Shown in pieces: positions 58,742-63,031 of a stretch of 64,000 nucleotides of DNA (positions are counted from its first letter, which is position 1; each line of letters starts with the position of its first letter). A program made the translations under genes and the position numbers. The notes beneath the pieces were generated by a model. The model had not been told where the DNA came from. It did not search any database and saw only the letters and a program-made list of their open reading frames with translations. This stretch comes from Trueperaceae bacterium. Its GTDB lineage: Bacteria > Deinococcota > Deinococci > Deinococcales > Trueperaceae. Where the stretch lies: the NCBI GenBank assembly GCA_965215565.1, contig CBDCDZ010000004.1:4192001-4256000 (forward strand), read 5' to 3'.

Positions 58742-59050
58742 TTAAGCGTCCGCGTCCACCGTACGCGGCACTTTGAAGTAGCCCTCTTCCTCTTCGACGG
58801 CGAGCCTCAACGTGTCGGCTTGCTCCAGGCTAGGGCGCACGACGTCTTCGCGAAACACGTTGTGACTCGGCGTCGGGCGCACGAGTTCGCTCACGCCGTC
58901 CGTGTCCAGTTCGCGTATCTGCTCGAAGTAGTCCAAGATTGTGTTGAGGTCCTCTTTGAGGTGCTGGGTCTCTTCTGGGTCAATCTCTAAGCGGGCGAGC
59001 GTTTTGAGGTGCGCCATCTCCTCGTCGCTGATGATCGGTTTATTGGACAT
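58742..59050 (-). CDS. gatC: Asp/Glu-tRNA amidotransferase subunit C
   Basis: HLKTLARL, LNTILDYFEQIRELDTDGV, NVFRED, YFKVPR. Confidence 0.93.
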   Translation of the reverse strand: MSNKPIISDEEMAHLKTLARLEIDPEETQHLKEDLNTILDYFEQIRELDTDGVSELVRPTPSHNVFREDVVRPSLEQADTLRLAVEEEEGYFKVPRTVDADA

Positions 59051-59204
59051 GAGGTGAGTGTACCACGTGCTATCTCAGACTCTGCAGTCGGTTGATGAGT
59101 AGAATACAGAACGGAGAATAAAGCGTACGCCGCAGCCTACCTTCTACATTCTTGCTCGTCTCTCGAGGACGTTTGTCCTCACCTACTTGGAGTAGACTGT
59201 CCCT

Positions 59205-59615
59205 ATGAAACGCGGTCTCAGTCTTTTAGCCATCCTCTTTTTACTCCTTAGTTGCAACGCTCCATCAGAAGGAAGTGCACAGGCCCAAGAGGCGCAGGGC
59301 GAGTCGGGGAGCAGCCCCACCGCCGTGCGCACCGAGTTGGAGGGCGAGCCTGCGCTGGGCGAGGCTAAGGTGCGCGTCTATGTCTTGGAAAATAACGAAG
59401 GTGTCTCGGGCGCAACCGTCGAAGTCACAGGCGATATGACCCACGCAGGCATGGCTCCGGTCACGGCTACCGCGAAAGAGGTCGGCGCGGGGCTCTACGA
59501 GACTGAGGGCTTCGAGTTCACGATGGCGGGCGACTGGCTCCTCACCTCCGAAGTGGTGTATCCTGATGGGACCGAAGTGGAAGATACCACGGCGCTGAGC
59601 GTACCTGGACAGTAG
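59205..59615 (+). CDS. YtkA/FixH-like lipoprotein
   Basis: Lipobox LLSC; GDMTHAGMAP and FTMAGDW. Confidence 0.8.
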   Translation: MKRGLSLLAILFLLLSCNAPSEGSAQAQEAQGESGSSPTAVRTELEGEPALGEAKVRVYVLENNEGVSGATVEVTGDMTHAGMAPVTATAKEVGAGLYETEGFEFTMAGDWLLTSEVVYPDGTEVEDTTALSVPGQ

Positions 59616-59626
59616 TTTGACCTGAT

Positions 59627-59947
59627 ATGAGACCTTCGCAAGACATCCTGAGAACTGCCTGCCGCGCAGGTAGAGGGGCGTTCTTCGCGTTTCTGCTGAC
59701 CTCGGCGCTCTTCGCCTCGCCCTTTTTGGCGGCGCAGCAGGATTTCGGACATACGCACCCAGAAGGCACGCCGCCGCATGTCCACGGCGTCTCGAGCGTC
59801 TTAGGTCACACACTTGTTACACCTGTCGTCACCTCCGTAGCGGTCAGCTTCGCGGTTATCTTTGTCTTATCTCTTACCTACACCTCTTTAGTTCTAGCTC
59901 CCCCTAGAAACCCCGCTCACGGGGTTCGCGCGCCACCTTTTGCTTAG
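59627..59947 (+). CDS. Putative DUF2946-like leader/arrest peptide ending RAPP
   Basis: N-terminal hydrophobic segment, HTHPEGTPPHVH, C-terminal ...HGVRAPPFA*; directly upstream of copC. Confidence 0.7.
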   Translation: MRPSQDILRTACRAGRGAFFAFLLTSALFASPFLAAQQDFGHTHPEGTPPHVHGVSSVLGHTLVTPVVTSVAVSFAVIFVLSLTYTSLVLAPPRNPAHGVRAPPFA

Positions 59948-60127
59948 CGTTTGACAGAGTCACACCTCTTTTTTAGTTTTCCACCTCTTGTGGACGACTC
60001 GAGCAACTCGAGCCTGTTCATAGATGTTGAGCCAGTGGAATAAGGTGTGAGGCTAGTCCCCGAGCTTCTCTAAGCTCGACTATCTTTACTCACCTCTTCT
60101 AATTCTAAGCAGAAGGAGTTTCATTCG

Positions 60128-60592
60128 ATGAAACGCATTTTCTTCGCGCTGATTCTATGCGGCGCGGCTTTCGGGGTGGCGTCGGCGCACGCCTATCTCG
60201 AGACTTCAAACCCTGCGACGGGCGCAACCTTACAAGCTGCACCCGAGCAAATCGTCCTGAATTTCAGTGAGCCTTTGGAGCTGCGCTTCAGCACCTTCAA
60301 AGTCGCCCCTCTGGAAACGGACGCCGCCGACCCGCGTGAGATCAAACTTGCCGCTATGGACCTTGTGGAAGAGGTTGTGGGAACAGACGAGGTGCAGTTA
60401 GAGGTGGACGTGCTCACCTCGGAGCGCACCGCTAAAGAGGTTGTGCTCGGACTGCCCGACCTCGCACCTGGCACGTACGTCGTCATGTGGCGGCTCCTCT
60501 CCACCGACACGCACACCTCGGACGACTTCGTCACCTTCACCGTCTCACCTGACGCGAATACATCTAGCACGGATACGTCCGCAGGGAATTAG
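60128..60592 (+). CDS. copC: Copper resistance protein CopC
   Basis: Signal peptide then HAYLETSNPA; LNFSEP; GTYVVMWRLLSTDTH. Confidence 0.88.
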   Translation: MKRIFFALILCGAAFGVASAHAYLETSNPATGATLQAAPEQIVLNFSEPLELRFSTFKVAPLETDAADPREIKLAAMDLVEEVVGTDEVQLEVDVLTSERTAKEVVLGLPDLAPGTYVVMWRLLSTDTHTSDDFVTFTVSPDANTSSTDTSAGN

Positions 60593-61536
60593 TGCTCGCG
60601 CTCGTCAAAGCGAGCTTGCTCTTGGGCGCGGTGCTGCTGATTGGCGCGGGCGTCTTCGGACGTTTCGTCGCGCCGGAGCTGCGCGAAGAGGTCCGAACGC
60701 CGCTCCGTTGGGGCGTTCTGACGGGTGCAGCCGTGCTCCTTATCGGGAGCGCAGTGGACGTGACGAAGACCGTGAATAACGCGCTTGGCAGGCACGACGC
60801 CGCGTTTTTGCTCGAGTACATGCGCTTCACGCGCCACGGCAACGCGGTGCTCGTGCGGCTCGGGCTCGTCGTCGTCGTCGCGTTTTTCACGCTCAGATGG
60901 GCAGCTCCGAACACCGCACCCTCGTTCGCGCGGCGAACCAATCACGCGCTCTACCTCGTCTCGAGCCTCGGCTTACTCGCTACCTTTAGCTGGACGAGTC
61001 ACGCGGCGACGATGGGCGGCACGCCCCCCTTGCTCGCGGACCTCGCGCACTTCGCGGCGGCGAGCGCGTGGTCCGGCGCAGTGCTCTACTTGGCGCTCGC
61101 GCCGGTGTGGGGGGAGGGGCAGCGGACGAAGTTGAACCGGGCGCTCGCTAGAGTGTCCGCGCTCGGCTTAGCGTGCGTCGCGCTTCTCTTCGTCACGGGC
61201 GGCTACACCTCTCTCATTCACCTGCAAAACCCCGAACGCTTCGCCCAGTCACCTTACGGTCAGGCGCTCATCTATAAGCTGCTGCTCGTCGCCGTTATTG
61301 TCGGGCTCGCAGCGTATAACCAGCTTTGGCTCCTGCCTGCTTCGCTCAAAGGAAAGCTTACGCGGCGCTTCAGACGGGTGATGAGGCTCGAGGCGCTGAC
61401 CCTCGTCGCCGTCTTTATCACCACGGGTGTTCTCACCACGAGCGCGGTGCCCCACGAACCCGGTGTTCAACCCACCGCATTAGAAAACCTCACGACCTTG
61501 CTGCGCTACTTAGGCGCATTCCTCAAAGGAGCTTGA
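60592..61536 (+). CDS. copD: Copper resistance/uptake membrane protein CopD
   Basis: SHA, HFAAASAWSGA, YGQALIYKLLL; 8-TM pattern; coupled to copC. Confidence 0.88.
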   Translation: MLALVKASLLLGAVLLIGAGVFGRFVAPELREEVRTPLRWGVLTGAAVLLIGSAVDVTKTVNNALGRHDAAFLLEYMRFTRHGNAVLVRLGLVVVVAFFTLRWAAPNTAPSFARRTNHALYLVSSLGLLATFSWTSHAATMGGTPPLLADLAHFAAASAWSGAVLYLALAPVWGEGQRTKLNRALARVSALGLACVALLFVTGGYTSLIHLQNPERFAQSPYGQALIYKLLLVAVIVGLAAYNQLWLLPASLKGKLTRRFRRVMRLEALTLVAVFITTGVLTTSAVPHEPGVQPTALENLTTLLRYLGAFLKGA

Positions 61537-61537
61537 C

Positions 61538-61969
61538 ATGACTACCCTCGCTAAGCTCGCCCTGACCCTTCTTTTCGCCCTCGGTGCGCTCGCCTTCGCG
61601 CACGAAACTCGTACCCTCGAGGCTGGCGACGGCGCGCAGTACGACGTGACCGTAGGATTGCTTAACGAGCCTATTTACAACACGGTGCGTACGGGTGTTG
61701 ACCTCATCATCCGCATGACGGCAGATGAAACGCCTGTGGAGAACCTGGAGAGCAGCCTTCAAGCCGACATCACCTCACCAGACGGCTCGGTAACTCGCAC
61801 CCTCACGCTCAGACCGCAGTACAATAAACCCGGTTACTACACTGCCGACCTCATGCTCGCTGAGCCTGGCACCTATGACGTGCGCGTGTACGGTATTATC
61901 GGCGAAATGGAGGTGGACGAGACCTACCCGCGCGAAGTCGCCGACATCAGCGAGATTCGCTTCCCGTGA
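61538..61969 (+). CDS. Secreted protein with mature N-terminal His (AFA|HET...), Ig-like
   Basis: Signal peptide; VGLLNEP, PGYYTA, PGTYDVR; inside the cop operon. Confidence 0.7.
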   Translation: MTTLAKLALTLLFALGALAFAHETRTLEAGDGAQYDVTVGLLNEPIYNTVRTGVDLIIRMTADETPVENLESSLQADITSPDGSVTRTLTLRPQYNKPGYYTADLMLAEPGTYDVRVYGIIGEMEVDETYPREVADISEIRFP

Positions 61970-62418
61970 TGAAAAACGTTTTCACTCTTCTGCTCTTCCT
62001 CAGCGTTAGCGCGGGTTTTTCTCACGCCGACCTGAAGAGCGCCACGCCTGGAAAAAACGCTGTCATAACTAAATTGTCTGGCGAAATCGTACTTAACTAC
62101 ACCGAAGCGGTAGAGGTTCGTTTCAGCACCTTCAAGGTTTACCCGCTCGAGGTCACGGGCGACTTGAACGAGCCGCAAGAGCGTCTGCGCATCAACGCCG
62201 CCGCTGCTGCGCTCATGAGTGAGGCGCTGGACGCAGAAGAGGACGAAGCGAGCCGCGCTGATATAGGCGTGCTGACCGAAGCGAGAACGTCGGACACGGT
62301 GACGCTTGGGCTTGCTGAACTAGGGTCCGGTTTCTACGTCGTGGTGTGGCGTGTCCTTTCGGCGGACACGCACACCACGACAGGTTCCTTTGTGTTCGAG
62401 TACGCTCCGAACGGGTGA
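61966..62418 (+). CDS. copC: Second CopC paralog
   Basis: HADLKSATP, EVRFSTFKVYPL, YVVVWRVLSADTH. Confidence 0.85.
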   Translation: MMKNVFTLLLFLSVSAGFSHADLKSATPGKNAVITKLSGEIVLNYTEAVEVRFSTFKVYPLEVTGDLNEPQERLRINAAAAALMSEALDAEEDEASRADIGVLTEARTSDTVTLGLAELGSGFYVVVWRVLSADTHTTTGSFVFEYAPNG

Positions 62419-62506
62419 GCTTAGTGGCAGAACCTCTGCACATCTCCGCGCGGTCCAGTTCAAAATCTCATATAGAGAGGAAGATACCTGTGAACATATT
62501 TACAGA

Positions 62507-63031
62507 GACGCGCTCACCACCTCCGAGCGGCTCGGCATGGACCTCTTCTTCAGTGAAAAGACCGAGTGCCACCACTGTCACGGCGGCTTCAACTTCACGC
62601 ACTCGGTCAAGCACCAGAACAACGCGCAGTTCGTGGAGAAGTCCTTTCACAACACCGGGCTCTACAACGTGGACGGTCAGGGCGCGTACCCGACGGGCAA
62701 TACGGGCGTGTTCGAGGTCACGGGCAAGCGCGAGGACCTGGGCAAGTTTCGCGCCCCGTCCCTGCGCAACGTCGAACTCACTGCGCCTTACTTCCACGAC
62801 GGCAGCGCCCAAACCTTGGAAGAGGTGGTGCGCTCCTACGAGGCGGGCGGGCGGCTTTTGGAGTCTGGCGACTTTGTAGGTGACGGGCGCGCGAACCCCA
62901 ACAAGAGCGGCTTTGTACGCGGCTTTTCATTGAACGACGAGGAACGGCAGGACTTGGTGAACTTTTTGAAAGCGTTGACGGACGAAGATTTCATCACGGA
63001 CGAGCGCTTCAGTGACCCCTTCGCGGAGTGA
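62507..63031 (+). pseudogene. C-terminal half of an MbnH-like di-heme cytochrome c peroxidase-family enzyme
   Basis: LFFSEKTECHHCHGG, FHNTGLY, GKFRAPSLRNVELTAPYFHDGS, GDGRANP; signal peptide and first heme domain absent. Confidence 0.8.

Follow-up and report, generated by a model that had tools for sequence, protein, structure and literature searches.

A 106-aa open reading frame immediately 5′ of a copC-copD cluster in a Trueperaceae bacterium probably encodes a cis-acting ribosome-arrest peptide whose stalling is gated by metal and which, judging from its sequence and relatives, would switch the cluster on when copper is scarce. His-only CutF-like leaders (PMC9973294) and RAPP-containing uORFs before copC (PMC12992588) are already in print. 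What appears to be new is a family of leaders with the motif HxH-x6-HxH and a predicted pairing of the Pro-Phe-Ala-stop codons with the copC Shine–Dalgarno (SD) region. Coordinates refer to the window, i.e. the whole 64,000 nt stretch analysed.

The leader is a gene under purifying selection

59627..59947, + strand: leader ORF, 106 aa, ATG at 59627, stop TAG ending at 59947 (dN/dS; family profile)
59678..59734, + strand: hydrophobic helix, residues 18-36, predicted N-in/C-out signal anchor (AlphaFold helix 5-35; charge bias)
59750..59785, + strand: HxH-x6-HxH (H42, H44, H51, H53), predicted metal site (conservation in aligned members)
59927..59938, + strand: RAPP arrest motif, 47 residues past the last His, followed by Phe-Ala-stop (conserved R[AGSD]PP)

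The leader ORF is a real gene under purifying selection, with dN/dS values of 0.14 and 0.24 relative to two congeners, similar to those of ytkA and copD (0.07-0.18), and of only 0.03 and 0.11 over the helix and His loop. An RNA-only element in place of a protein was ruled out, the substitutions being mostly synonymous. An earlier note made from this DNA had described a 106-aa ORF with a signal- or TM-like N-terminus, a central His motif and RAPP two codons before the stop, and all of this was found as described: the hydrophobic stretch covers residues ~18-36, the HxH-x6-HxH stretch at residues 42-53 (59750-59785) reads HTHPEGTPPHVH, and RAPP is followed by Phe-Ala-stop. RAPP near a stop codon is not rare in this genome (12 of 8817 mechanical ORFs of 70-200 aa) and the case for the leader therefore rests on conservation, not on RAPP itself. 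AlphaFold models a long helix (residues 5-35) followed by a confident non-helical loop. No structural relative was found by Foldseek, the best Z of a fold search was 4.2, and Pfam and NCBIfam searches with the protein gave no meaningful match.

Genes surrounding the leader

59205..59615, + strand: YtkA-like (CtaK-type) lipoprotein gene directly 5′ of the leader (Pfam YtkA 49.4 bits, cut-off 25.9)
60128..60592, + strand: copC (Pfam CopC 71.8 bits)
60592..61536, + strand: copD (Pfam CopD 65.7 bits)
61538..61969, + strand: exported Ig/YtkA-like protein (weak YtkA match below the cut-off; in 22 of 61 loci)
61966..62418, + strand: second copC (Pfam CopC 58.1 bits)

The ytkA-like gene ends 11 nt before the leader ATG, and such a gene lies directly upstream in 22 of the 63 loci with enough flank. 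The earlier note had overlooked it, together with two features described below, a predicted −10 box just 5′ of the ATG and a predicted long-range pairing with the copC SD. The gap between leader and copC (ATG at 60128) is 180 nt, in agreement with that note, and both copC and copD pass their Pfam cut-offs. Further downstream (62351-63031) the window holds only the 3′ part of mbnH; mbnP and the 5′ half of mbnH, absent here, are present in both congeners.

CopC, CopD, MbnP, MbnH or NosL is encoded downstream of the leader in 47 of the 61 loci with at least 1.5 kb of downstream sequence, and in most of the other 14 the genes are those for a NapH-like 4Fe-4S membrane protein, exported proteins rich in His/Met, or PepSY-TM. 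CopC, CopD and YtkA are the domains of the B. subtilis importer YcnJ, described as needed in copper starvation (PMC13344008). This YcnJ-like domain set favours an uptake role for the cluster and hence release of the stall by copper.

Several other features of these loci deserve mention. The NapH-like 4Fe-4S protein (510-550 aa) occurs in 24 of 61 loci (L033, L129 and 22 more), and could, at a guess, donate electrons or act as a copper reductase. The gene most often found first after the leader (13 of 61 loci) codes for exported proteins rich in His/Asp/Met, whose C-terminal Ig-like domain is conserved and has an MxGMxH motif (L033:8012-8995, L075, L082, L084, L105, L113, L126); those scanned had no Pfam or NCBIfam match. 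One branch, often with RDPP, heads tandem nosL genes (L086, L087, L090, L093, L095, L098, L103, L107). Two variant leaders may represent a re-use for other metals: L104 (G138:C1:127771-128061), whose partial His motif is flanked by Cys, stands before genes for two siderophore/B12-type ABC substrate-binding proteins, and L108 (G058:C14:200774-201076), which has no His and keeps RAPP, precedes a carbonic anhydrase. In the congener G002 (L032:4992-6116) an IS4 element with 15-bp terminal inverted repeats and a 9-bp duplication lies between leader and copC, apparently within an older inverted-repeat element, and the stall site is 1.3 kb from the copC SD. The genome of the window also has two CsoR/RcnR-family genes far from the leader locus.

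A cysteine-free leader family

Orthologous leaders were found by position in 41 genomes, using copC as bait, and were then aligned. The family profile matched 60 of 128 Trueperaceae-family genomes, a tally that includes this genome and one unpublished genome from which no conclusion is drawn, and 121 proteins among 1.84 billion representatives, two of which (P0044 and P0104) are spurious long repeats and were left out. A 94-sequence profile matched 51 of 101 Trueperaceae genomes compared with 5 weak partial matches in 199 genomes from other families of the class, and a related-locus search with this locus returned only the congener. In the genomes searched the leader family thus seems confined to a single family of the order, Trueperaceae. 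To call it the Deinococcota version of such leaders, as the earlier note did, is therefore incorrect because other families of the order have Cys-type (HCxxC) leaders at the same place.

The members share the succession A-L-R-A-G, helix, P-x-x-A, D-F-G, HxH-x6-HxH, a divergent linker and R[AGSD]PP. H42, H44 and H51 are kept in 94 of 94 aligned leaders and H53 in 93, and any Cys in the loop is found in three. The six-residue spacer of the His motif is exact in 110 of 119 representatives, and none of the 116 representatives carrying the motif has a CxxC nearby, in keeping with the suggestion that His ligands may be used in place of CxxC. Small ORFs with HxH..HxH and RAPP upstream of copC, which the earlier note proposed to look for, were found, with both motifs conserved in the orthologues. 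Since alignment A2 was selected for RxPP, the invariance of R/P/P in it is built in. Excluded from every locus count were L108, which has no His, and the spurious L109.

Hydrophobicity, charge bias and the modelled helix point to an export-type N-terminus with a predicted N-in/C-out orientation, and the helix is unusually conserved. According to the positive-inside rule, the distribution of charges around a membrane helix indicates its orientation. In 91 of 92 leaders the N side of the helix carries a net positive charge, and in 83 of 92 the loop carries a net negative one, as would fit a loop that faces outward. We found no prior description of the HxH-x6-HxH family in the literature outside subscription journals, and no Truepera or Deinococcota entry in the supplement texts; members may still be contained in File S1 of PMC9973294 and Fig. 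4E of PMC12992588.

The distance between His motif and arrest motif is fixed

Circularity was avoided in the spacing test by using a profile of the N-terminal half alone, without the RAPP half. It produced 67 strong matches, all at already known loci, plus 2 weak extras (E 0.002 and 0.004). Of the 67 loci, contig ends truncate 2, a variant motif with RAPP is present in 1, and the other 64 are complete and have all four His. Each of these 64 carries R[AGSD]PP 44-47 residues past the last His (44, n = 3; 45, n = 11; 46, n = 20; 47, n = 30) despite the diverged linker, and the arrest words are RAPP (45), RDPP (8), RGPP (6) and RSPP (5), with no others. Ascertainment bias as the source of the fixed spacing was discarded since the half profile recovers the same loci. 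The spacing is 45-47 in 105 of 112 representatives, and the C-terminal tail after the motif measures 10 residues or less in 45 of 63 loci. The first Pro codon of RAPP is CCA in 24 of 59 loci, a codon used for 118 of 993 Pro residues in the genes downstream.

In CruR, 45 residues are reported between the metal motif and RAPP, and the insertion of five more spoils the copper response (PMC9426467). As published, Gly in place of the Ala of RAPP permits arrest fully and Ser or Asp partially (PMC12992588), and the four motif variants present in the family are among those that permit arrest to either degree. The distance from the peptidyl-transferase centre to the periplasmic end of SecYEG corresponds to about 50 residues in extended form (bioRxiv 2021.02.06.430026), and the His loop may sense metal at the outer mouth of the channel. 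CruR is described as working without its signal peptide (PMC9426467), and equal spacing hence does not prove sensing outside the membrane.

Predicted pairing of the leader end with the copC SD

59936..59947, + strand: 5′ strand of a predicted 12-bp helix, comprising the A-site Pro, Phe, Ala and stop codons (folding z −4.35)
60105..60116, + strand: 3′ partner strand in this predicted helix, taking in only the first three bases of the copC SD (AGGAG, 60114-60118)
59989..60078, + strand: looped-out intergenic hairpins, common to the closest congener (folding)

Folding of nucleotides 59900-60160 (z −4.35) pairs the end of the leader with the copC SD region ~160 nt away, and the 5′ strand of this helix (59936-59947) falls inside the footprint of a stalled ribosome. 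In a comparison of just two sequences, the congener keeps all 12 helix pairs, with one G-U changed to A-U, and the inner hairpins vary. A small hairpin at 59909-59925, just 5′ of the RAPP codons, is also common to the congener.

Pairing was assessed across the family between the 21 nt starting at the first Pro codon and the downstream SD region of the same locus, for 59 non-redundant loci. Left out of the RNA tests were L032, with its IS, and two duplicate anti-SD strands, and the opening-energy scan omitted a further five loci with more than 330 nt; downstream starts were chosen by script and some are likely wrong. Cognate pairing was −11.9 kcal/mol, compared with −9.1 for permuted (0 of 5000), −9.9 for GC-matched non-cognate and −10.4 for tail-shuffled combinations, statistics that are overstated since the loci are related and not independent. 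This excess is restricted to windows whose start lies 0-12 nt from the Arg codon. The helix is individually significant in 12 of 59 loci, and in only 33 of 59 is the cognate pairing better than the mean of its tail shuffles. About a quarter of the homologues have their own predicted helix, centred on the stall footprint, and three quarters have no significant one. Unrelated 10-13 bp helices spanning 160-320 nt are present in L072, L073, L130, L115 and L091. The median distance from PP to the first possible start is about 135 nt.

Removing the footprint from the fold lowered the opening cost of the SD by at least 3 kcal/mol in 14 of 54 loci and raised it by as much in none, compared with a drop of this size in 1 of 54 for each of two control shifts of the footprint. 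For the window the cost decreased from 10.7 to 7.2 kcal/mol, the SD staying mostly paired, and at the T. radiovictrix locus (L122) there was no drop (9.8 to 9.9).

The C/U-rich and G-poor 3′ half to which the earlier note had drawn attention does exist in this ORF (C55/T50/G32/A24), where its C-G skew of 0.26 is equalled or beaten by 1 of 359 long-ORF ends of this genome; it does not extend to the family, as the fourfold sites of the linker show no family-wide synonymous bias of C over G. The skew of the leader-copC intergenic region is an ordinary 0.08, and one third of 359 comparable regions are as high. A conserved rut inside the leader ORF found no support at synonymous sites. In these models an SD-masking helix is the better-supported output when compared with the C/U-rich 3′ half. 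Nevertheless, since a rho gene is present in this genome and C exceeds G after PP in 52 of 58 loci, a CruR-like termination may act instead or as well. A search of Rfam with nucleotides 59000-60400 yielded one chance-level match on the other strand and no known riboswitch.

Transcription of leader and copC

59613..59618, + strand: TAGTTT, predicted −10 box 8 nt before the leader ATG, overlapping the ytkA stop (TAnnnT enrichment)
59951..59979, + strand: promoter-like TTGACA-N17-TAGTTT (weaker form in one congener; not a family trait)

A TAnnnT box 6-9 nt before a start is found in 31 of 65 loci compared with 5.2 in shuffled sequences, and in 22 of the 41 loci without an upstream ytkA (3.3 in shuffles). 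Such −10 boxes are reported to drive leaderless mRNAs in this phylum (PMC12340547), and the leader promoter is likely to be of this leaderless type.

The earlier note had also pointed to TTGACA-N17-TAGTTT at 59951-59979 as a potential independent copC promoter. The sequence is indeed there, and it exists in a weaker form in a congener, which makes a basal copC promoter within the intergenic region possible at this locus. As a family trait an internal promoter found no support: similar sites occur in 2 of 61 loci, compared with 2.2 in shuffles. In the window itself the class has two matches where 0.44 are expected, and 5 of 100 shuffles reach two. A consensus promoter scan of the locus found none.

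Discussion

The leader likely works in the manner of CruR and CutF, with an output predicted to resemble that of CutF and SecM. Stalling in low copper would most likely free downstream translation, and metal binding would release the stall. CruR (Bp2923), the prototype of DUF2946 (PF11162), is described with an export-type N-terminus, a metal motif ~45 residues before a C-terminal RAPP, a C-rich ORF 3′ half, as at the locus in the window, and a long intergenic region (162 nt compared with 180 nt here) in front of copper-acquisition genes (PMC9426467). In contrast to CruR as described there, the leader has no CxxC, carries HxH-x6-HxH directly after its helix, has no Pfam match, is accompanied by CopC/CopD/YtkA/MbnH/NosL and not by a TonB receptor, and is predicted to act through an SD-masking helix rather than, or besides, Rho termination.

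Contrary to the link with DUF2946 that the earlier note proposed to check by HMM, the family falls short of this profile. Neither the window protein nor nine other members matched PF11162 above 23.7 bits, nor did anything else in the genome of the window, the 25 families listed, out of 48 for 94 members, do not include DUF2946, and one His-family member (G143) reaches 20.4 bits. A descent of the His family from DUF2946 is possible. The top ESM Atlas matches are unnamed clusters (0.96), the nearest named ones being DUF2946, DUF6769 and DUF2607 (0.92); with only 98-135 shared features this nearness is a lead only. The HCxxC leaders of the other families in the order resemble ours in their place before cop genes, their His-rich loop and R[AG]PP, with a spacing fixed at 42 in 7 of 7 loci, and differ in giving weak DUF2946 matches in two of three scanned. 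Homology to the Cys-type leaders found no support in hhalign, which matched the His family to seven Cys-side sequences only over RAPP, with a probability of 3%.

The small RAPP/RGPP uORFs before Cu genes, such as SLIV_16130 and SLIV_18480, are likewise described as membrane-targeted with RAPP near the C-terminus; SLIV_18480 has four helices with His/Met and SLIV_16130 has Cys and His, whereas the leader consists of one helix and HxH-x6-HxH (PMC12992588). The traits of that class are all found here (<300 aa, a localisation signal, C-terminal RAPP and a Cu-related gene downstream). In the same source, copC is among the enriched downstream classes of RAPP uORFs (133 RAPP compared with 72 AAPP) and His-based sites are predicted.

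We envisage the following sequence of events. The transcript, likely leaderless, would start at the leader ATG, and the emerging helix would bring the ribosome to the translocon. At the moment of stalling, 50-61 residues would separate the His loop from the peptidyl-transferase centre, with the loop at or just past the outer channel mouth. In the absence of metal, arrest with RAP in the P site would place the ribosome over the anti-SD strand (59936-59947), which would make copC initiation easier and might in addition block Rho. Metal-driven folding can exert a pulling force on a nascent chain. Binding of metal, most likely Cu(II), would make the His loop fold and so tug the nascent chain out of its arrest, after which the helix would re-form or Rho would terminate transcription, leaving the uptake genes quiet.

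A more elaborate version is tentative and in our opinion doubtful: a cysteine-free four-His hairpin reading Cu(II) or a second metal outside the membrane, its distance from the stall matching precisely the combined length of tunnel and translocon, an RNA helix that closes up to 320 nt of intergenic structure, and two stacked checkpoints that read two metal signals. The stacking would apply to T. radiovictrix and two congeners, three genomes of one genus (G138, G140 and G142; L122, L079 and L092) in which a His-type and a true DUF2946 leader share one cluster, in the order His leader, NapH-like 4Fe-4S protein, Cys leader, Ig-like protein, copC, copD. The Cys-type leader at L122:3504-3902 (+ strand-oriented) is over the Pfam cut-off with CxxC-41-RAPP, and in one of these genomes the leader is the same as a protein named Truepera radiovictrix.

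The same arrest leader could also operate with the opposite sign, copper inducing or prolonging the stall and the cluster being on in high copper for resistance. This is the logic of CutF from Rhodobacter capsulatus, which is described, in line with what is predicted for our leader, with co-translational export on which sensing depends, a Pro-rich stall and a stem masking the next SD (PMC9973294; bioRxiv 2025.02.05.636593). CutF differs in having CxxxC and PPP, a copper-induced stall and a detoxifying oxidase as its target (PMC9973294), and the predicted helix of the leader closes a 160-nt multi-hairpin domain. We consider such a sign unlikely here: the downstream genes are of uptake or delivery types (CopC/CopD/YtkA, MbnP/MbnH, NosL) and the annotated downstream classes include neither a multicopper oxidase nor an efflux gene, CruR has the same RAPP motif, and the leader lacks the Cys to form the disulfides on which the CutF model relies.

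It is improbable, too, that the arrest leader senses another metal (Ni, Co, Zn) or several, a thought prompted by the fact that His-only sites are not copper-specific. The published His-only CutF-like clusters SSN 14 and 17 share with the leader a signal sequence, a His-only motif and a C-terminal PP, and precede HupE/UreJ (Ni/Co) (PMC9973294), in contrast to the copper genes of the leader family, a difference drawn from their published description. The variants L104 and L108, with their substrate-binding proteins and carbonic anhydrase, point the same way, and the three genomes with a Cys-type leader in the same cluster suggest a different input for the His type. Against this stand the copper clusters at 47 of 61 loci and the lack of HupE/UreJ among the annotated downstream classes.

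We think it very unlikely that the ORF encodes a free-standing small membrane metal-binding protein, with copC transcribed from the internal promoter and RAPP being incidental. The promoter-like sequence at 59951-59979 with its weaker form in a congener and the confident AlphaFold model of helix and loop would fit, but such sites are at shuffle level across the loci, R[AGSD]PP and its spacing are kept in 64 of 64, RAPP-type words are reported to be avoided in proteomes (PMC12992588), and complementarity to the cognate SD peaks at the footprint. Leaders such as SecM and MifM use arrest to report on export or membrane insertion; least probable of all is a monitor of this kind with purely structural His. 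In its favour, ApdA and ApdP, which are RAPP peptides, go with protein-localisation genes (PMC10951233), almost every downstream product is exported and the helix is unusually conserved; against it, the four near-invariant His keep a fixed distance from the stall site and the neighbours are metal proteins and not Sec/YidC.

With a metal-gated arrest peptide as the preferred reading, the family would bear on a question which the account of CruR leaves unexplained, namely how copper releases the stall (PMC9426467), and which the CutF model answers with disulfides. With a family that keeps this ruler and is Cys-free, metal-controlled arrest can be considered apart from redox chemistry, and force-profile tests gain a minimal site of 12 residues along with more than 100 natural variants. 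Since a cultured species has His-type and Cys-type leaders in one cluster, both chemistries could be compared in one cell. The proposed mechanism extends a known one and does not constitute a new category. It gives a hitherto unannotated family a proposed function, and these bacteria a possible way to limit copper uptake after transcription has started.
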